Source: an uncultured Bdellovibrionales bacterium
GTDB lineage: Bacteria > Patescibacteriota > Minisyncoccia > Moranbacterales > UBA1568
Direction: 5' to 3'
DNA length: 64,000 nt
Assembly: GCA_964420045.1 (NCBI GenBank)
Contig: CAYQPQ010000002.1
Location: forward strand, 2,979 to 66,978
Position 1 is the first letter of the stretch, and each line of letters begins with the position of its first letter. The notes beneath the pieces are model-generated. The model ran no database searches. It was not told where the DNA came from and worked only from the letters and a program-made list of their open reading frames with translations. A program made the position numbers and the translations under genes. Shown one piece after another: positions 1,298 to 64,000 of this stretch.

Positions 1298-3073
1298 ATG
1301 AAATACGTCATCTACGCGAGAAAATCTACCGAAAGCGAAGACCGACAAACGCTCTCGATTCAGTCGCAGATTATCGAAATGCAAGAGATTGCAAAACGCG
1401 AGAATCTCGATATTGTGAAATTGTTTCAGGAATCGAAATCAGCAAAAGCGCCGGGGCGTCCGGTGTTTTCCGAGATGATCGAGTTTATCAAAAAGGGCAA
1501 AGCGGACGGAATACTTTGTTGGAAAATCGATCGTCTCGCAAGAAATCCACTTGATGAAGGGCTGATCAAATGGATGCTTCAAAAGAGCGAGATCAAACAA
1601 ATCAAAACATCCGAACGCGATTACAATCCGGAAGACAATGTGGTCATTGCGAGCATCGAGTTTTCCATGGCGAATCAGTACATCCGAGACTTGAGCCGAA
1701 ACGTGAAACGCGGACAAGCGGAGAAAGTGCGGCGAGGAGAATATCCGAGCTCCCCTCCCCTCGGGTACACGGGCGATCCCAAAACGAAGCGATTGATTAT
1801 CGTCGAGAAAGAAGCGAGGTGTATCAGAAAAGCATTTGCTCTCTACGCGGCAAAAAGTCATTCGATCATTTCGATTACCGAAGAGTTACAAAAAGAAGGG
1901 CTTCGAACTCGTCGAGGAAGGATCATCTACAAGTCCACGCTCCATCGTATCCTCACCAATCCCATCTACTGCGGAATGTTTGAGTGGAACGGACAAACCC
2001 ACGCAGGAACGCACGAGCCGATTGTTTCGAAGAAACTCTTTGACGAAGTGCAACACATACTCTCCCCGGCGCAGTTTGTCCGACGGACGGAATCATGGAA
2101 GTACACCTACCGCGGACTCATGATGTGCGGCGAGTGCGGACTTAAAGTAACCGCGGAAAAGCAGAAGGGTCATGTCTACTACCGATGCACCAAAACATTC
2201 GGGACACACCGCTGTTCGCAACCGTACCTGCGCGAAGAAAAACTCATTGAACTTATCGGCGAAGAGTTGAAAAGAATTCAGTTTGATGAAGAGATTCTCG
2301 ATCTTGTGGTGGATGCGTCCAAAGAGAAGTACGCTTCCATGGGAGCAGACACCGCCGAGCAAGAAAAGACACTCCTTGCCGCTCTCAAAGAAAATCAAAG
2401 TCGGAAGGATTCGCTTGTGGAAAAGTTTATCGACAATGCACTTCCAAAAGACATCTACGATCGAAAGTTCTCCGAGCTCTCGGAAGAAGAAGCGGGCATC
2501 AGGGAACAACTTCAAGATATGCAAACACAGGACGGGAAGGTTATTGAGAACATTGAGACAGCGGTACAGTTCATCAAGACCGCGCATGACCTCTTCAATC
2601 GAGGCGACGAAACCGTCAAAAGAGAGGTCGCCTTTCTCGTATCTTCGAACCTGGGGTTAAAGGACCGAAAGATCGCGTATTTCAACCTCAATGACCCCTT
2701 CTCGTGGCTCGTCGAAGACGCGTCGTCCCTTCTTCCTCAAAACACAACCCTCGAACCGGCGTTTGTGCGCTTCCCAAAAGGAAAAGCAGTCTCTCATGAG
2801 ACTGCTCGTTCTGTTCTGCGGAGAGGCAGGGATTCGAACCCTGGAAGGGGTTTCCCCCTTAACACATTAGCAGTGTGCTGCTTTCAGCCGCTCAGCCACC
2901 TCTCCAAGTTCTCACAAATTTTCAATGAGCTACGCGCCAAGCAGACTGTAACTCCCCCAAAACAGCTTCATTGCTCGAAGTACCGAGGGACACGCATAGA
3001 AAGAGTGTATCACTGCCAAACACCCTCTGGCAAGACAAGAAACACGCGACCAGTTCGAGCAAATAGACTTTGA
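1298..3073 (+). CDS. Large serine recombinase (resolvase/invertase catalytic domain, recombinase domain, zinc ribbon, coiled coil). The ORF track's frame starts at a TTG at 1292; the first ATG is 1298. There is no in-frame stop until 3073, so the C-terminal ~90 aa read antisense through tRNA-Ser and are probably not functional
   Basis: The N-terminus VIYARKSTESEDRQTLSIQSQ is the hallmark serine-recombinase catalytic motif, with the nucleophile Ser in YARKST. A Cys-rich segment CGECG...YYRC...HRC is followed by a long coiled coil, as in large serine integrases. The 3' end of the ORF overlaps the tRNA at 2819-2905 on the opposite strand. Confidence 0.8.
   Translation: MKYVIYARKSTESEDRQTLSIQSQIIEMQEIAKRENLDIVKLFQESKSAKAPGRPVFSEMIEFIKKGKADGILCWKIDRLARNPLDEGLIKWMLQKSEIKQIKTSERDYNPEDNVVIASIEFSMANQYIRDLSRNVKRGQAEKVRRGEYPSSPPLGYTGDPKTKRLIIVEKEARCIRKAFALYAAKSHSIISITEELQKEGLRTRRGRIIYKSTLHRILTNPIYCGMFEWNGQTHAGTHEPIVSKKLFDEVQHILSPAQFVRRTESWKYTYRGLMMCGECGLKVTAEKQKGHVYYRCTKTFGTHRCSQPYLREEKLIELIGEELKRIQFDEEILDLVVDASKEKYASMGADTAEQEKTLLAALKENQSRKDSLVEKFIDNALPKDIYDRKFSELSEEEAGIREQLQDMQTQDGKVIENIETAVQFIKTAHDLFNRGDETVKREVAFLVSSNLGLKDRKIAYFNLNDPFSWLVEDASSLLPQNTTLEPAFVRFPKGKAVSHETARSVLRRGRDSNPGRGFPLNTLAVCCFQPLSHLSKFSQIFNELRAKQTVTPPKQLHCSKYRGTRIERVYHCQTPSGKTRNTRPVRANRL
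2819..2905 (-). tRNA. tRNA-Ser (anticodon GCT), class II with a long variable arm
   Basis: The reverse complement reads GGAGAGGTGGCTGAGCGG...GCACA-CTGCTAA-TGTGT...GGGGGAAACCCC...CAGGGTTCGAATCCCTGCCTCTCCG. It has a 7-bp acceptor stem, a GTTCGAATC T-loop, an anticodon loop CTGCTAA and a long variable stem-loop. Confidence 0.88.
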
Positions 3074-6278: not shown

Positions 6279-6312
6279 AAAAAATTCTGTTAAACACTCG
6301 CGATCAAAAGAG

Positions 6313-6399
6313 CGGTGGGGGTGAGATTCGAACTCACGGTACCGTTTCCGGTACGGCAGTTTTCAAGACTGCTACCTTAAACCGCTCGGTCACCCCACC
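6313..6399 (-). tRNA. tRNA-Ser (anticodon TGA), class II
   Basis: The reverse complement reads GGTGGGGTGACCGAGCGGTTTAAGGTAGCAGT-CTTGAAA-ACTGC...GGAAACGG...GAGTTCGAATCTCACCCCCACCG. It has a long variable arm, a GTTCGAATC T-loop and anticodon TGA. Confidence 0.88.
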
Positions 6400-6518: not shown

Positions 6519-6986
6519 ATGGGAAGCAATGCCCCGCAAATCACCTGGTCGGCACCGGAATTCGACGCGTCGCCTGTCCACTCGCGCGTGCTGCTCGCGC
6601 TTCTTGGCGTGTTTCTCGCCATCATTGTCTATGCGCTCATCGAGAACAGCTCCATCATGGCCATCACCTTTGTGCTTTTGGGAACGGTCACACTCCTTCA
6701 CAGCCGCAAGCCTCCAAAAACACTCGACTGCGCCATCACATCCGAGGGCGTGATCGTCGAAAAAGAAGCCTATATGTTCGACAATATAGCCTCGTTTTGG
6801 ATCATCTACGAAGAAGACGAGCGCAGCCTTTTCTTGAAAACGCACGGATCACTCATTGCTTCCGTCCGTGTACCCCTCGGATCCATGAACCCAACCACTG
6901 TCCGAGACGCCCTTCTCCCCTCTGTAAGAGAAATAAAATACGAGCCGACGATTGTTGACACACTCTCTCGTTTCCTGCATATTTAA
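6519..6986 (+). CDS. Hypothetical membrane protein (two transmembrane helices)
   Basis: The ORF has a hydrophobic hairpin LLALLGVFLAIIVYALIENSSIMAITFVLLGTV and sits in a coding-like context. No motif was recognised. Confidence 0.4.
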   Translation: MGSNAPQITWSAPEFDASPVHSRVLLALLGVFLAIIVYALIENSSIMAITFVLLGTVTLLHSRKPPKTLDCAITSEGVIVEKEAYMFDNIASFWIIYEEDERSLFLKTHGSLIASVRVPLGSMNPTTVRDALLPSVREIKYEPTIVDTLSRFLHI

Positions 6987-6996
6987 ACGAGGTTGC

Positions 6997-7198
6997 GCGC
7001 TCGTAGCTCAGTGGATACCTGCCTGCCGGTAGGCGGGGAGCGCCTGGTTGGTATCCAGAAGGTTGTTGCTTTATACACAATCGTAATTCATGTTTTTGCG
7101 CTCGTAGCTCAGTGGATACCTGCCTGCCGGTAGGCGGGGAGCGTCTGGTTGGTATCCAGAAGGTTGCTGTTTTATACACAATCGTAATTCATGTTTTT
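6997..7198 (+). repeat. Two tandem 101-bp repeats, each a truncated tRNA 5' half followed by a spacer. The fragment spans acceptor arm, D-arm and anticodon arm and carries a 20-nt insertion in the D-loop region
   Basis: Units begin at 6997 and 7098 (period 101) and the intact tRNA begins at 7199. Each unit reads GCGCTCGTAGCTCAGTGGATA+cctgcctgccggtaggcggg+GAGCG(C/T)CTGGTTGGTATCCAGAAGG and then diverges into ttatacacaatcgtaattcatgttttt. Neither unit has a T-arm or a 3' acceptor strand. Confidence 0.8.
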
Positions 7199-7271
7199 GC
7201 GCTCGTAGCTCAGTGGATAGAGCGTCTGGTTGCGGTCCAGAAGGTCGCAGGTTCGATTCCTGCCGAGCGCA
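7199..7271 (+). tRNA. tRNA, 73 nt, anticodon GCG (Arg); the isotype call is tentative
   Basis: The sequence is GCGCTCG-TA-GCTC-AGTGGATA-GAGC-G-TCTGG-TTGCGGT-CCAGA-AGGTC-GCAGG-TTCGATT-CCTGC-CGAGCGC-A, a canonical cloverleaf. Anticodon loop positions 34-36 are GCG. Confidence 0.8.
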
Positions 7272-7398
7272 CACTGACACAAAGTACAAGGATTTACACC
7301 TCTCCAAGAAAGATAAAAGACAGGCTCTTCGCCTGTCTTTACTATATTCATCGACAAAAACACGTGAAAGCTTCGCCATGCAGACGTCAAGACACTTC

Positions 7399-12726: not shown

Positions 12727-14274
12727 TCAAATCCTCCAAACTGACCCGACACGCGCATCCATCCGTGTACATACTCCAAGAAGAAGCCCGAGAAACATCA
12801 TGCCGAAGTGTCCGCTCCACAGCCAGTGGTCGAGCAAAAGCATGGGAAGAAGGGTACAGAAAATCGCCATCGAAAGAGCATTTCTTCTCTTCCATGCGGA
12901 GACAAACCAGCACAAGAGAGGCAGAGCAAACAACACGAATCCGACCGCGCCAAGCTCAGCAAATACCAGGACCGGCACCATATGCACCGGCTGAAACGCA
13001 CCGACAAATGTTCCAGCGCTCGGGAGACGCTCCCGCGTAAATGCCGTAAAATTTCCGCCGCCGACGCCAAGAACCAGGTGCTCGCGTATCACCGAGAGCG
13101 CCTGCTCAAAATAAAGCGCCCGATCTGAAAGCGACCCTTCACGCGCAAGTGTTCCTTCCGAAAAGCGACTCAATGCAATATCGCAAACAAGAAAGAAAGC
13201 AATAGAGAAAGAAAGAATCACAATAACTACGCTGCTCACCCATCCCATTCCGTCATTCCCGCGCCTGCCTGCCGGTAGGCATGGAAGGCGGGAATCCAGA
13301 TACCGCAAGACTCCAGACAAATTGAAACGGGATTTTCTCGGAAAATTATCGACACTATCAACCGTCGAAAGGCACGTTTCGGGAAAGTTTTCTCTTGGAA
13401 CATCCGAGTCTTGGTAAAGCGTAGATTCCCGCCTTCGCGGGAATGACGAGAAAAGAGAGTGCTTCAGACATCGAGTCAAACCCAGAAGCAGCACTCCCAT
13501 CCCCAAGAGAAGCCCCATCCACCCGCTTCGAGAAAAGGTAAACACAAGCGCAAAGCTCATCAGAGCCGTCATCCCCAAAAATACAGCTCTCGAAGAGACT
13601 CGCTTCGCCGTCACCGAAAGCCATACACCAAACAGCATGGCAACCGCCAGCGCGCCTCCGAGCACATTTGGGTGTTCAAACCCGCCATACGCACGGAGGA
13701 ATCGCCCGCCCTCGGTTTTCAAAACAAACGTCCCCCATCGCGCCGGATCATGCTCCGCGATGCCAAGCAGTGTCGAAGGTGCGATATATTGCCCTGCCCA
13801 CTGCGAAAGCGCGAGACTTGCTTGAATCGACATCGAGAGGAGAAAAATAGAGATCGTCTTCCGCATCGAAACGTCACTATATCGCGCAAGCACAAAGGCA
13901 AGCGTCATGAGAAATATTCTCCACGCAGAAATAAGTGCAAGACTCGCATCGATCGACCAGAGAGAAGAAAGAAGCGCCCACAGGAAAAATACGCCAAGCA
14001 GAAGCAACACGCGGTCACGAACAACAACTCGCCACACCTCCCGTTTCGTTCCAAAAACAAAAAACAGAGCACACAAAAGAAGTGCCACATCCGACACATA
14101 TGTCCCAAGCGTCGCATATTGCCATTTCTCCCCACTCACAAATACCTCCCGCACTATCCACACCGTCTGCCACGGAAGGAGAAAGACAAACGCATACCAC
14201 AAAAATTGTCGCCCCGATTTCAACATAGCGCCAGCATAGCACTCGCCCCACCCCTTCGTCATTCCTTCAAGCAA
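12727..14274 (-). CDS. O-antigen ligase / O-antigen polymerase family (Wzy_C) membrane protein, carrying an in-frame insertion of about 210 nt made of palindromic repeat elements
   Basis: Multiple transmembrane helices are present. The Wzy_C motif FTFSRSGWMGLLLG and the downstream periplasmic-loop motif ...GGGNF...FQPVHMVPVLVFAELG match the O-antigen ligase family. Between them a hydrophilic low-complexity stretch of about 70 aa is encoded by nt 13245-13455, the segment that holds the repeat elements. Confidence 0.7.
   Translation of the reverse strand: MLEGMTKGWGECYAGAMLKSGRQFLWYAFVFLLPWQTVWIVREVFVSGEKWQYATLGTYVSDVALLLCALFFVFGTKREVWRVVVRDRVLLLLGVFFLWALLSSLWSIDASLALISAWRIFLMTLAFVLARYSDVSMRKTISIFLLSMSIQASLALSQWAGQYIAPSTLLGIAEHDPARWGTFVLKTEGGRFLRAYGGFEHPNVLGGALAVAMLFGVWLSVTAKRVSSRAVFLGMTALMSFALVFTFSRSGWMGLLLGMGVLLLGLTRCLKHSLFSSFPRRRESTLYQDSDVPRENFPETCLSTVDSVDNFPRKSRFNLSGVLRYLDSRLPCLPAGRRGNDGMGWVSSVVIVILSFSIAFFLVCDIALSRFSEGTLAREGSLSDRALYFEQALSVIREHLVLGVGGGNFTAFTRERLPSAGTFVGAFQPVHMVPVLVFAELGAVGFVLFALPLLCWFVSAWKRRNALSMAIFCTLLPMLLLDHWLWSGHFGMMFLGLLLGVCTRMDARVGSVWRI
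13245..13455. mobile_element. MITE-like palindromic element inside the O-antigen ligase ORF. Two inverted copies of a 26-nt hairpin core gattcccgccttcgcgggaatgacga flank about 125 nt; the left copy carries a nested 17-21-nt element cctgcctgccggtaggc in its loop
   Basis: The segment 13251-13300 reads cgtcattcccgcg+cctgcctgccggtaggcatgg+aaggcgggaatccaga. The segment 13424-13449 reads gattcccgccttcgcgggaatgacga, the same core in opposite orientation. The identical 26-nt core recurs at 62276-62301 inside ileS. Confidence 0.7.
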
Positions 14275-31131: not shown

Positions 31132-31529
31132 GGGGTTGTCTAGACTCGACAGGATGCACTTTGAAAATACGCAAGCCGATTATGAAGGTGATATCGCTAA
31201 TCTCCCCTTCACGATGATATCTGCAAAATTCATCACAAAGGCAAAGCAAGCCTTCGCGCAAGCGTTCCAGCCTGCTTTCGCTTCCGCTCTCGCCTAATTT
31301 CGGCAAGAGCCATCGGACTCCCAACTCCCGATAGGGAATGTTCCGGTGTCATATCTTCGGGAAAGCCCCCTGCTCTCGCTTTATGGAGTAGCGGTCGCTT
31401 CTGCACATGAGGCACGCCGACCCGTTTTCGCACGCTTCTACGGTCCGGCGCACACCAAGCGCGCTATGCTTGTAGACTATTTTTGAAACTCATCACTGGA
31501 CATGGGTGCAATTCCCATCAACTCCACTA
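31132..31529 (+). ncRNA. ssrA: tmRNA (ssrA), one-piece. The tag ORF would be AKFITKAKQAFAQAFQPAFASALA (24 aa), with resume codon GCA at nt 31223 and stop TAA at 31295
   Basis: The 5' end GGGGTTGTCTAGACTCGACAGGAT parallels E. coli GGGGCUGAUUCUGGAUUCGACGGGAU. The 3' end GGACATGGG-TGCAATT-CCCAT-CAACTCCA forms the T-arm and the acceptor strand that pairs with the 5' GGGGTTG, keeping the G3:U wobble. The resume codon lies 91 nt from the 5' end, the tag ends ...ALA-stop, and the gene is immediately downstream of smpB. Confidence 0.8.
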
Positions 31530-61347: not shown

Positions 61348-64000
61348 AAATGAAATGTGTCTCCCTCAATCTTAGTCTCCTCTACATATTCTGCATCAGC
61401 AATTTCACTAGACTGTACTTCCGTCGCCAGCACTTCTTTCGCGATCATCTCTTGGAAACCCGGAACACTATTTTCCGCATCACCCGCAAACACTTCTTTC
61501 TTCCCATCATACCCAAGCACGATTCTATCTTCCACATTGAATCCCGATTTCTTCCTTCCCTCCTGAATTGCCCGAATGATTTCCCTCGCCTCACCTTCGA
61601 GCTTGAGCTCGGGGGTGATGTTGGTATCCACAACTACAACTGGATTATTTATATGCGCCCTAGCCGAAACAACACTCACATGAACAACAGCATCAACACG
61701 TTTAGCATTCAGTTCATCAGCTATAATAGCTTTGAGTTCTTGCATCAGGTTTATCTCAATTTCCGCTCTAACATTAGATATGGGCTGCCTCACCTTTATC
61801 TTCGCTTCCGCACGTTTCAAAAGTCCCACACTAACAATCTCACGAACCAATTTCATGTCCGTATTCAGTTTCGCATCAATCAAACCACCATCCGCTTCCG
61901 GAAATTCCGCCAAATGAACAGAACTTTCCTTGGTAAGATTCCGATATATTTCTTCCGCAATAAAGGGAGTGAACGGCGCGAGAAGTTTTGCAAGTGTCAC
62001 GAGAACATCGTAGAGCGTTTGATAGGCTTGTTCTTTGTCACTATCATCCTCCGACTTCCAAAATCGTTTTCGCGAGCGGCGAATATACCAGTTCGAGAGA
62101 TTATCAAGAAACGTCTCCACCTTTTGCGTCGCACTATAGACGTCATAATTTTCAAGCGCGCCATCAACATCGCGAATCAAGAGTTGCAATTCCGACAATA
62201 TCCATCGATCAAGCAAACTCTTTTGTCTGTCATCCTCGGGCTTGACCCGGGGATCCAGAATACCGGAAGACTCTGGATTCCCGCCTTCGCGGGAATGACG
62301 ATTCAGAAGCTTCCACCCATCAATCGCCGCATACGTCATGAAAAACGAATACGAATTCCAGAGCATGCGAAAGACACGGTTCTGCACGTCGCGCATTCCT
62401 TTTACGTCAAAACGCTTCGGAAGGCCTGGCTGATTGAGTGAGAAGAGAAGCCAGCGAAGCGCATCCGCGCCATACTGATCGAACATTTCGAACGGATCAA
62501 TCACGTTCCCCTTCGACTTCGACATCTTCTTGCCTTTCGAATCGAGAATATGTCCGAGGCAAATCACGTTTTTGTACGCGCGTTGTTCTTTTACAACGCC
62601 AGCCTTTGCCAAGAGATTCGCCATCGCATGAAGCGTATAGAACCACCCTCTGGTCTGATCGATCGCTTCACAGATATAGTCCGCCGGAAATGTTTTTCCG
62701 GTTTCGATATTTTTCTTTTCTTCACTATTTGTCGACGTCGGATAGCCGAATTGCGCCAAAGGCATCGCACCCGAGTCAAACCACACATCCAACACTTCCG
62801 GCGTCCGTCGCATCATGCCGCCACACTCACACGAAAATTCCACATCATCAATATACGGCTTGTGCAAATCACCAAGCTTCTTTCCGGAAAGTTTTTCCAA
62901 TTCGGCGGCGGATTCAATCACCCTCGTTTTCCTGCACGACGCCAACTCGCATACCCAAATAGGAAGTGGCGTCCCCCAATATCGCTCGCGCGAAATCGCC
63001 CAGTCCTTCACGCCTCGCAGCCACTCACCAAATCGCCCGTCTCTGATATGCTCCGGCACCCAGTTGATCGATTCATTTCCCTTTGAGAGCTCCTCGCGCA
63101 GTTCCGACATGCGGATAAACCACGACGGCTTCGCATAGTAAATGAGCGGCGTATCGCACCGCCAGCAGAACGGATATTCGTGCGTATACGATTCTTCCTT
63201 GAAGAGCAATCCGCGATTTTTCAAATCTTCAATCACCAATTCATCCACAGCGTATCGATTCTTATCATTCATCTTCTTCACTGAGATTCCTTCGCCTGGA
63301 AGATCAAATCCTTTCTTCATCGTTCCATCCTGCTCGACCGTGAGAAGCGTCGGCAAGTCATTCTCCCTCGCCACATTCGCATCATCTTCCCCAAATGCCG
63401 GCGCAATATGCACAATCCCTGTCCCGGAATCCGTCGTGATGAAATGTTTTCCATTGACTTCATCCGAGATCACTTTATAGATTCTCTCTTCACCATTGTT
63501 CTTGCCAAGAGTTCTATAAAGTGACTTATACCGTAGCCCCAGCATCAGCACTGGCGTAACTAGCTCAAAAACCATTTCAATTCTTGTTTTTTTGTCATCG
63601 GAAGAAATAACAAAACCATTATTATTTCCACCTCCAAAGAATTTCCCAATTTCTTTTTCTTGAACAAAAATTTTCACTTTATTTGCATCCTTTGCAAAAT
63701 AATACTCATCGCCAATCTCAATTTTTGACAAGAATGACCTATCTCCCTCAATAGAGACTACTTTTGCTTTTACATATTCAATATTCGGATTCATCGCCAA
63801 AGCCACATTCCCCGGCAATGTCCACGGCGTCGTCGTCCATGCCAACAGATACGTCTTCCCCTGATTCTTAATTCCTAATTCCTGATTCTCCAATTCAAAC
63901 TTCACATACACCGAATTGTCCGTCGTCTCTTTGTACCCCTGCGCGACTTCGTGCGATGAAAGCGCCGTCCCACACCGATAGCAATACGGAACCACCTTGT
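61329..64000 (-). CDS. ileS: Isoleucyl-tRNA synthetase; the 5' end continues past the window edge. It carries an in-frame 26-nt palindromic element insertion at 62276-62301
   Basis: KMSKSKGNVIDP is present, along with an editing/CP1 region, the WFDSG segment and the anticodon-binding domain LDRWILSEL. The ORF stays open to coordinate 63995 with no start inside the window. Confidence 0.9.
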   Translation of the reverse strand, partial: KVVPYCYRCGTALSSHEVAQGYKETTDNSVYVKFELENQELGIKNQGKTYLLAWTTTPWTLPGNVALAMNPNIEYVKAKVVSIEGDRSFLSKIEIGDEYYFAKDANKVKIFVQEKEIGKFFGGGNNNGFVISSDDKKTRIEMVFELVTPVLMLGLRYKSLYRTLGKNNGEERIYKVISDEVNGKHFITTDSGTGIVHIAPAFGEDDANVARENDLPTLLTVEQDGTMKKGFDLPGEGISVKKMNDKNRYAVDELVIEDLKNRGLLFKEESYTHEYPFCWRCDTPLIYYAKPSWFIRMSELREELSKGNESINWVPEHIRDGRFGEWLRGVKDWAISRERYWGTPLPIWVCELASCRKTRVIESAAELEKLSGKKLGDLHKPYIDDVEFSCECGGMMRRTPEVLDVWFDSGAMPLAQFGYPTSTNSEEKKNIETGKTFPADYICEAIDQTRGWFYTLHAMANLLAKAGVVKEQRAYKNVICLGHILDSKGKKMSKSKGNVIDPFEMFDQYGADALRWLLFSLNQPGLPKRFDVKGMRDVQNRVFRMLWNSYSFFMTYAAIDGWKLLNRHSREGGNPESSGILDPRVKPEDDRQKSLLDRWILSELQLLIRDVDGALENYDVYSATQKVETFLDNLSNWYIRRSRKRFWKSEDDSDKEQAYQTLYDVLVTLAKLLAPFTPFIAEEIYRNLTKESSVHLAEFPEADGGLIDAKLNTDMKLVREIVSVGLLKRAEAKIKVRQPISNVRAEIEINLMQELKAIIADELNAKRVDAVVHVSVVSARAHINNPVVVVDTNITPELKLEGEAREIIRAIQEGRKKSGFNVEDRIVLGYDGKKEVFAGDAENSVPGFQEMIAKEVLATEVQSSEIADAEYVEETKIEGDTFHFWLKKV
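62276..62301. mobile_element. Copy of the 26-nt palindromic hairpin element gattcccgccttcgcgggaatgacga inside ileS, in frame (encodes ...HSREGGNPESSG...)
   Basis: The 26 nt are identical to 13424-13449. The flank ccagaataccggaagactctgg is related to the flank of the 13251-13300 copy. The IleRS segment between the conserved FMTYAAIDGW and LDRWIL blocks is about 20 aa longer than in E. coli IleRS. Confidence 0.75.

Follow-up and report, generated by a model that had tools for sequence, protein, structure and literature searches.

The closest described counterpart of the element reported here is the REP/REPIN-RAYT pair, in which a short, GC-rich extragenic palindrome is dispersed and is accompanied by one small enzyme gene, an HUH/Y1 transposase, that is flanked by copies of the repeat (PMC3116915, PMC3733652). 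REPs are lineage-specific, carry a GTAG or CGTC head, and in some cases sit within other palindromes; the CGTC-1 type consists of a CGTC head, an 8-bp stem starting with AT, a 4-nt loop, and a CCA tail (PMC3733652). A second relevant group is formed by the free-standing GIY-YIG homing endonucleases, such as phage T4 SegB in a tRNA cluster (PMC2330249). These enzymes exceed 200 aa, are encoded by selfish-looking small genes beside tRNA genes, and have lineages associated with particular target genes. In eukaryotes, Slx1 cleaves branched and stem-loop DNA close to junctions. The prokaryotic Slx1-like proteins (UPF0213; YazA- and YhbQ-type) are minimal stand-alone domains, although one such protein is fused to TrmH, the D-loop G18 methylase (Dunin-Horkawicz et al. 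2006, PMC1564403). Finally, integrase-driven islands and prophages in tRNA genes leave a partial tRNA copy beside a regenerated intact tRNA (PMC9897764).

We analyzed a 64-kb stretch of DNA, referred to as the window, in which an earlier note had described a roughly 20-nt element, here called E, at three sites. The 17-mer CCTGCCTGCCGGTAGGC is indeed present as an exact match on the plus strand at 7018–7034, 7119–7135, and 13264–13280, whereas shuffles of the window are expected to give only 0.05 matches, even with up to three mismatches allowed. The first two copies belong to a 101-bp tandem repeat (6997–7219, 2.2 copies, 97% identical) that leads directly into an intact tRNA-Arg(GCG) gene. 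Alignment to this gene shows that each 101-bp unit comprises tRNA-Arg positions 1–47, after which the copy stops, followed by a 34-nt spacer. In both truncated copies, a 20-nt block, cctgcctgccggtaggcggg, forms a gap-free insertion between tRNA positions 21 and 22, where the D-loop ends on its 3′ side (..GTGGATA on the left, GAGCG.. on the right). The alignment shows no target duplication at these junctions, with no base repeated, and it agrees with the insertion at this position that the earlier note had described.

The third copy is a 21-nt version, cctgcctgccggtaggcatgg, at 13264–13284, which splits the loop of a palindrome into cgtcATTCCCGCg and aagGCGGGAATcca. The host palindrome reads cgtcATTCCCGC-gaag-GCGGGAATcca, and unsplit copies on the minus strand at 13425 and 62277 confirm that E interrupts it, as the earlier note had surmised for the near-identical string at this site. 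Over its full extent (13251–13298), this palindrome matches the description of a CGTC-1 REP, cgtc-ATTCCCGC-gaag-GCGGGAAT-cca. E itself is a small hairpin, also as proposed, with an 8-bp stem and a CCGG loop (−7 kcal/mol as DNA), and the window copies are variants with two mismatches to the perfect palindrome CCTGCCTGCCGGCAGGCAGG. Because the copies at 7018 and 7119 fall within one tandem duplication, the window holds two independent insertion events, not three. The features of both sites are collected in Table 1.

Table 1. Features of the window at the two E insertion sites and the uninterrupted REP copies
Feature	Position	Strand	Remark
Sigma-70-like promoter match, TTGACA-17-CATATT	6955..6983	+	Consensus match only; 14 nt 5′ of first tRNA fragment
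Unit 1 left arm, tRNA-Arg positions 1–21	6997..7017	+	Identical to real gene
Palindrome E copy 1, CCTGCCTGCCGGTAGGCGGG	7018..7037	+	2 mismatches to perfect palindrome
Unit 1 right arm, tRNA-Arg positions 22–47	7038..7063	+	Anticodon loop altered (ttggtat)
34-nt spacer	7064..7097	+	At place of GIY-YIG gene in complete cassettes
Unit 2 left arm, tRNA positions 1–21	7098..7118	+	
Palindrome E copy 2	7119..7138	+	Identical to copy 1
Unit 2 right arm, tRNA positions 22–47	7139..7164	+	
34-nt spacer, second copy	7165..7198	+	Abuts intact tRNA
Intact tRNA-Arg, anticodon GCG, functional copy	7199..7272	+	ARAGORN; Rfam tRNA 73.3 bits
CGTC-1-type REP left half: CGTC head, stem ATTCCCGC, first loop base	13251..13263	+	Family per PMC3733652
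Solo palindrome E, CCTGCCTGCCGGTAGGCATGG, 21 nt	13264..13284	+	In REP loop
Interrupted REP right half: loop AAG, stem GCGGGAAT, CCA tail	13285..13298	+	
Uninterrupted REP copy	13425..13445	-	Empty-site reference
Second uninterrupted REP copy	62277..62297	-	

Both E sites of the window are occupied in relatives. A strain that is 99.3–99.7% identical (Logan SRR26947516) carries one 101-bp unit compared to two in the window; this is the sole difference, and it could reflect assembly collapse instead of a real difference. In another related assembly, the contigs end at E or at the REP at both sites, and the E copy within the REP is kept.

The truncated tRNA-Arg copies also differ from the real gene in the anticodon loop, which reads ttggtat instead of ttgcggt. 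The altered loop (GGTAT) creates an 8-bp complement between GGTATCCA (7049–7056) and TGGATACC (7012–7019) that bridges the D-loop/E junction, and the change is probably a templated one. Both substitutions in the tRNA-borne E copies keep G·T pairing, but on the sense strand only (−5.0 vs −3.1 kcal/mol).

To follow E beyond the window, we scanned one genome per species (596 Gb) for one sequence variant, the GGTAGG 17-mer. It occurs at at least 120 loci with unrelated flanks, in Bacteroidota, Patescibacteria (many), Ignavibacteriota, Omnitrophota, Planctomycetota, Chloroflexota, Nitrospirota, and deltaproteobacteria; some genomes supply several loci among the matches listed. By our own arithmetic, about 70 occurrences of a random 17-mer are expected in 596 Gb, so the raw count by itself proves little. 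The 17-mer is followed by AGG in 94 of the 129 matches listed, compared to an expectation of 1 in 64. This extension, despite unrelated flanks, indicates that the true unit is a 20-mer, CCTGCCTGCCGGTAGGCAGG, which can be written with its variable base as CCTGCCTGCCGG(T/C)AGGCAGG. The canonical form is a perfect 20-bp palindrome with the halves CCTGCCTGCC and GGCAGGCAGG.

These data show that E is a discrete, independent unit and not part of one duplicated segment. The earlier note had considered that the 17-mer might be restricted to the three window sites and share its flanking sequence there, and the genome scan contradicts this. A related reading, which attributes the three window copies to chance or to a single duplicated segment, can draw on the 101-bp tandem duplication, which reduces two of them to a single event, but it is refuted by the chance expectation of 0.05 matches, by the unrelated flanks of the 13264 copy, and by the loci found elsewhere, and we give it practically no credence.

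E is mostly extragenic: 27% of the matches listed lie within stop-free frames of at least 120 codons, compared to 80% of random positions. Among the same matches, the base 5′ of E is G in 67% and A in 28%, and the base 3′ is G in 57%. A target duplication at the element boundaries, which the earlier note had suggested looking for, is absent; exact abutting repeats at the matches listed are 0–1 nt long, the same as in controls. Clean insertions of E are found in REP loops in the window, at L073 (the same CGTC-type palindrome), and at L113 (a related one), in a terminator loop at L049, and in the CCGG loop of E itself at L008, L031, L048, and L094. The proposal of a structure-targeting element therefore stands insofar as E is discrete and is found cleanly inserted in loops of tRNA-derived DNA, a REP, a terminator, and itself, but it does not extend to a general rule. 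Among the matches listed, loops closed by at least 6 bp contain 14% of the junctions, versus 7% of random positions, and this roughly 2-fold enrichment is too weak for hairpin-loop targeting to be the main rule for solo copies.

Approximately 93% of the GGTAGG-variant copies among the genome-scan matches listed are solo, far from GIY-YIG genes. E is also present in 12 viral contigs, and two contigs, L277 and L278, end at E. A search for a larger element ending in E half-sites returned only noise and further whole E copies. Having neither a target-site duplication nor a long element with E half-site ends, E was rejected as a MITE or classical transposon. When E (20 or 21 nt) was deleted from every match and ARAGORN was rerun, none of the sequences yielded a complete tRNA, which rules out E as an intron of functional tRNAs. 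A group I or bulge-helix-bulge tRNA intron was likewise rejected, as E is found only in truncated tRNA copies adjoined by an uninterrupted tRNA.

We clustered the ORFs within 2 kb of E among the matches listed. This analysis yielded one recurrent non-housekeeping family, GIY-YIG proteins of about 80 aa (L012, L041, L060, L081, L082, and L102), and no recurrent transposase family. The arrangement of fragment with E, ORF, and tRNA can be read directly at L012, L041, L060, L081, and L082. In the typical layout, a 5′ tRNA fragment split by E is followed by the GIY-YIG ORF and then by an intact tRNA of the same identity on the same strand, which begins a few bases after the nuclease stop codon; the complete cassette spans about 350 bp. 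L041 (Saccharibacteria) and L082 (Zeaxanthinibacter), which are unrelated to each other, resemble the window in that E lies in the D-arm of a truncated 5′ tRNA-Leu, with an intact tRNA-Leu(CAA) downstream of the fragment on the same strand. The fragment of L060 contains two E copies in opposite orientations, and L081 (Dehalococcoidia) shows the order tRNA, ORF, and pseudo-tRNA, the last of which is densely interrupted by E and other small GC hairpins. Rather than structured targets hit at random, the truncated tRNA copies represent the redundant halves of tRNAs within one specific family of cassettes.

E separates tRNA positions n and n+1 precisely in 34 cassettes, with no base duplicated. Here, n is 20–24, at the 3′ border of the D-loop (Arg, Asn, Lys, Phe, and Leu), 13–15, at its 5′ border, 9, or 32. 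The fragment arms are identical to the resident intact tRNA at 603 of 611 positions on the left and 432 of 458 on the right, and the fragments end at about position 29–41. A mirror layout, with the intact tRNA first, then the ORF and a 3′ tRNA fragment, carries E at 31/32, 44/45, 51/52, or 70/71; these sites are also stem-loop edges, and the arms are perfect. As E resides in the fragment in both layouts, it marks the redundant tRNA copy, whichever side that copy is on.

Related cassettes are distinguished by additional E-like hairpins in different loop positions (L164 compared to L165 and L178; L143 compared to L180), indicating that E was inserted repeatedly and independently. E-like hairpins can also be arranged in tandem (L133) or nested (L202). 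Gene-less units, consisting of a fragment with E, a spacer, and a tRNA, are found at L114, L133, L149, L178, and L194, and at L149 and L178, the gene-less unit is placed after a complete cassette. Recombination between the fragment-plus-E repeats of loci such as L149 and L178 would produce exactly the arrangement in the window. A tblastn search detected no GIY-YIG gene in the 64-kb window, and for this genome the link to the nuclease is thus purely architectural.

We also collected loci by protein similarity alone, using an alignment of four E-associated GIY-YIG proteins (A2) as the query against metagenomes; 555 of 600 candidate stretches were confirmed, and the 80 loci analyzed are the best tblastn matches. 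A same-strand tRNA is located within 400 nt of the nuclease ORF at 70 of these 80 loci, and directly downstream of it at 54. E with no more than two mismatches is present at 52 of the 80 loci, usually 41–71 nt 5′ of the start codon, although these loci are the closest relatives of proteins found via E, and its frequency may drop in the wider UPF0213 family. Of the loci that have a downstream tRNA and sufficient upstream sequence (54), 48 have E (up to three mismatches) within 130 nt upstream of the ORF; in the other six, E derivatives or different GC hairpins occupy the same place. Outside the cassette zones of the 80 loci, we found one E in 197 kb. E flanks the ORF on both sides at 8 loci, and the perfect palindrome is its commonest form (44 of 61 copies), while the asymmetric variants are mixed in orientation (about 8 to 4). 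E is thus an almost constant component of GIY-YIG/tRNA cassettes. Isolates that carry such cassettes include Olivibacter oleidegradans CCM 7765 and Flagellimonas oceanensis. The suggestion that E could be the recognition site of a nuclease fits this tight linkage to a GIY-YIG nuclease gene.

The same counts bear on a rival explanation, in which E would be no more than a common REP-like palindrome that spreads through a different trans-acting enzyme or through template switching during replication. It would simply build up in neutral DNA, for example in redundant tRNA halves, and the GIY-YIG neighbor would be unrelated to it. Passive accumulation in fragments of about 35 nt cannot explain the presence of E at a fixed distance in 48 of 54 protein-selected cassettes, compared to a single copy in 197 kb elsewhere. 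There is also no recurrent transposase family near E among the matches listed, and the GTAG or CGTC head that marks tagged REPs is missing from E. We consider this explanation improbable, even though it would accommodate the mostly solo GGTAGG-variant copies among the matches listed, the other hairpin families at the same positions in some cassettes, and the documented occurrence of REPs inside other palindromes (PMC3733652); the probably templated 8-bp complement in the window fragments likewise suggests hairpin-driven template switching here.

The nuclease proteins are 74–87 aa in length and comprise the catalytic domain only. They match PF01541 (GIY-YIG catalytic domain) with E-values of 1e-12 to 2e-16, and the residues Y2, Y13, G15, R23, H27, and E47, which are invariant in A2, correspond to the GIY-YIG active-site pattern. 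NCBIfam contains no specific model for the nuclease; TIGR01453 matches only its first approximately 35 residues, far below the cutoff. In a profile search, the closest matches among solved structures are two UPF0213 proteins, BH0048 (1zg2, 4e-8) and EF2693 (1ywl, 6e-8). The structure-specific endonuclease SLX1 follows (7wme, 4e-6; also 6seh, 7cq2, and 4xlg), while I-TevI reaches only 6e-3. By these matches, the nuclease appears to be Slx1/UPF0213-like, with a minimal single domain. Its homology, together with the placement of E at stem-loop edges, suggests that the predicted enzyme may cut branched or stem-loop DNA in a structure-specific manner, matching the activity of eukaryotic Slx1 near junctions.

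The nuclease ORFs group by tRNA class: one clade contains all Leu isoacceptors and a second clade contains Lys, with further groups for Arg-TCT, for Arg-TCG, for Gly, and for Asn/Arg-CCT/Phe/Met. The nuclease genes have diverged to about 55–67% identity, whereas the tRNA arms are about 94–99% identical to the resident tRNA. Among 2.9 million viral contigs, a single one encodes a close relative of the nuclease, which points to a chromosomal family; we accordingly rejected phages as the main carrier.

How E and its nuclease compare with the systems outlined above can now be specified. They work most like a REP/RAYT pair, but two defining features of such a pair fail. E has no GTAG/CGTC head, as it starts with CCTG and ends with CAGG and contains GTAG solely within the stem in its GGTAGG variant, and the enzyme is a minimal GIY-YIG nuclease instead of an HUH transposase. 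Moreover, the E 20-mer is common to many phyla, a duplicated tRNA gene surrounds the enzyme gene, and the density of E is apparently low, at about 1 per 200 kb outside cassettes. With the GIY-YIG homing endonucleases, the nucleases share the catalytic domain, the selfish-looking small gene beside tRNA genes, and the association of enzyme lineages with particular target genes. They differ in having about 80 aa without a linker or C-terminal DNA-binding domain and in being chromosomal in many bacterial phyla, and the Seg/I-Tev systems lack the partial tRNA duplication and constant palindrome found here. The Slx1/UPF0213 proteins provide both the best structure matches and the same single-domain architecture.

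The partial tRNA copy beside an intact tRNA recalls integrase-driven islands, and we considered this origin for the cassette. It was rejected because no integrase ORF lies between the repeats, where the only ORF is that of the GIY-YIG protein. Unlike the islands, the cassette is only about 350 bp in total, duplicates the 5′ half of the tRNA as often as the 3′ half, and has a partial copy that is always interrupted by a hairpin. Cyanobacteria are reported to contain small dispersed palindromic repeats (SDRs). Like E, the SDRs and the GC or hairpin clusters of organelles are palindromes of about 20–27 nt that nest mutually and cause no target duplication; they differ from E in being unrelated in sequence and lineage-restricted. 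We know of no enzyme or tRNA cassette associated with either. In the full-text literature searched, which comprised open rather than subscription-only articles, we found neither E 20-mer and no description of a GIY-YIG cassette with a tRNA fragment and hairpin. The literature examined likewise yielded no report of a function, a cognate DNA element, or a tRNA-gene linkage for bacterial UPF0213 proteins, and PMC1564403 and PMC9897764 do not mention the cassette arrangement.

On balance, we favor the explanation that E is the cognate palindrome of widespread, tiny cassettes living in bacterial tRNA genes. The Slx1-like nuclease would act on folded or cruciform DNA at stem-loop junctions, and E would be copied or pasted into the nick. 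Insertions into functional tRNAs would be purged by selection, while those in the redundant tRNA half would persist. They may even be favored there, either because they interrupt a direct repeat through which the cassette would be deleted or because they destroy a nuclease target. The intact tRNA would stay functional, and the nuclease gene would probably ride on the tRNA promoter. In the window, the displaced 5′ half would retain the native promoter, and the real tRNA would be transcribed by read-through; the promoter-like site just 5′ of the first fragment, which from its sequence is probably the native tRNA promoter, fits this idea. The segment 6997–7198 would then represent a gene-less derivative with two tandem units, each composed of tRNA-Arg 1–47 with E and a spacer, that most likely arose by recombination between fragment-plus-E repeats flanking the gene. 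The copy at 13264 would be a solo E inserted into a CGTC-type REP at its loop.

Both the role of the nuclease in moving or recognizing E and the reason for the retention of E are what we infer from these patterns, and several observations complicate the picture. In some cassettes (e.g., L081), unrelated GC hairpins replace E, and it may therefore be the hairpin itself that matters, not its sequence. The great majority of GGTAGG-variant copies among the matches listed also lie at a distance from GIY-YIG genes. The intact tRNA beside the nuclease gene retains any tRNA-borne target, so a simple homing-endonuclease immunity model fails to close. In addition, GIY-YIG enzymes are not, to our knowledge, capable of joining DNA, and the paste step would thus need other factors.

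Another possible explanation for the retention of E would involve a role at the RNA level or as a spacer, rather than in targeting. As an RNA element, E would fold into a stable stem-loop, which in layout A would begin the nuclease mRNA at its 5′ end and in layout B would lie at its 3′ end, and serve as a stabilizer, terminator, or insulator. The position of E, upstream of the ORF with a 5′ fragment and downstream with a 3′ fragment, is consistent with such a role, as is the sense-strand-only pairing kept by both window substitutions; REPs are known mRNA stabilizers (PMC3733652). As a spacer, E would break up the homology that the tRNA half shares with the intact tRNA, allowing the cassette to escape deletion. 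The ability of non-E hairpins to substitute agrees with either role, but neither explains how the same 20-mer arrived in many phyla or why E nests in itself and occurs as solo copies in REP and terminator loops, and the mixed orientation of the asymmetric variants in cassettes also argues against them. We regard these roles as unlikely to be the reason for retention, although they can coexist with the cognate-palindrome explanation.

If the nuclease does act on E in the manner that we favor, the two might constitute a previously unrecognized class of mobile system, a possibility we raise only tentatively. The GIY-YIG enzyme would spread a 20-bp palindrome to DNA stem-loop junctions, and its gene would be kept inside tRNA genes through half-tRNA duplication. 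We know of no case in which the GIY-YIG fold drives transposition. A more radical variant is suggested by the high identity of the arms to the tRNA relative to the divergence of the nuclease genes. Here, the transcribed unit of tRNA arm, E hairpin, and tRNA arm would serve as a scaffold-plus-guide RNA and bring the nuclease to the corresponding tRNA gene.

Stand-alone GIY-YIG proteins of the UPF0213 type are widespread in bacteria, and the two structures that have been solved still carry the title "Hypothetical UPF0213 protein". The association described here gives bacterial UPF0213 proteins a concrete partner, namely, a 20-bp palindrome together with tRNA-gene half-duplications. Partial tRNA copies with hairpins break assemblies, as at L277 and L278, and could be miscalled as tRNA genes or pseudogenes. 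The near letter-for-letter conservation of the palindrome across phyla implies either a strong protein–DNA constraint or frequent horizontal spread of a selfish cassette of about 350 bp. If it is true that the nuclease inserts or recognizes a defined hairpin at stem-loop junctions, this would represent a new and very small DNA-manipulating activity.

In the truncated tRNA-Arg copies that carry E, the palindrome of roughly 20 nt, the sequence of the anticodon loop is ttGGTATcc, where the intact gene has ttgcggtcc, and the anticodon has thereby become GGT. Through this altered loop, GGTAT, the segment GGTATCCA (7049-7056) becomes exactly complementary over 8 bp to TGGATACC (7012-7019), which straddles the junction between the D-loop and E. 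The same 8-bp complement is present in the second truncated copy, where 7150-7157 pairs with 7113-7120. The alteration looks like a templated, quasi-palindrome change.

The intact tRNA-Arg downstream has the anticodon GCG. Bacteria usually decode CGN codons with an ACG anticodon, modified to ICG, and GCG is thus unusual for an arginine tRNA; it may be a hint at the lineage. This gene is listed below with the other RNA genes of the window and a further palindrome. When the window (1-64000) was divided into 4-kb bins, GC skew was negative (-0.12 to -0.24) in every bin except the first, and AT skew was positive everywhere except in the last.

RNA genes and TGTC-head palindrome of the window
Feature	Coordinates	Strand	Remark
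tRNA-Ser gene	2818-2905	-	
tRNA-Ser gene	6312-6399	-	
Intact tRNA-Arg	7199-7272		anticodon GCG
tmRNA gene	31132-31529		
Second palindrome family, tgtcATCCTCGGGcttgaCCCGGGGATccaga	62228-62258		TGTC head; directly adjoins the CGTC-type REP at 62277-62297

Two related strains were compared at the E sites of the window. A strain that is 99.3-99.7% identical (Logan contig SRR26947516_4999) contains one 101-bp unit of tRNA fragment, E, and spacer, versus two at 6997-7198, indicating either a genuine difference in copy number or collapse of the repeat during short-read assembly. For the second strain (Logan SRR12487046; contigs L277 and L278), the assembly terminates within E at the tRNA locus; at the other site it breaks off in the REP that E interrupts, within its left half and two bases before E is reached. 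Short-read assemblies appear to be broken by the E and REP repeats.

The exact 20-mer of E was also found in IMG/VR, in 12 stretches (L121-L132) from 11 viral contigs, with three copies in one contig and two in another. Many solo copies of E are embedded in intergenic DNA with local short-period repeats, as at loci L015, L025, L038, L058, L077, L083, and L120. Words of at least 6 nt are common to both flanks (14 nt on each side) in 13 cases, compared to approximately 3.5 expected. Across all sites of the GGTAGG variant, a purine tends to precede E and a G to follow it. This preference is not mirror-symmetric even though E is nearly palindromic; which way the G.T asymmetry points is thus correlated with the target strand, and this could reflect strand-specific insertion.

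With the TGTC-head palindrome lying beside a CGTC-type REP, the window holds at least two REP-like families in addition to E. At L081 (2560-3200), a locus from a Dehalococcoidia MAG, a GIY-YIG gene is flanked on either side by tRNA-Met pseudo-copies in which a 15-nt GC hairpin (CCCGCCTGAGGCGGG or CCCGCCCAAGGCGGG) stands in place of the 15-nt D-arm, and which also contain E and further hairpin insertions. The role of E seems to be played by other hairpin families as well.
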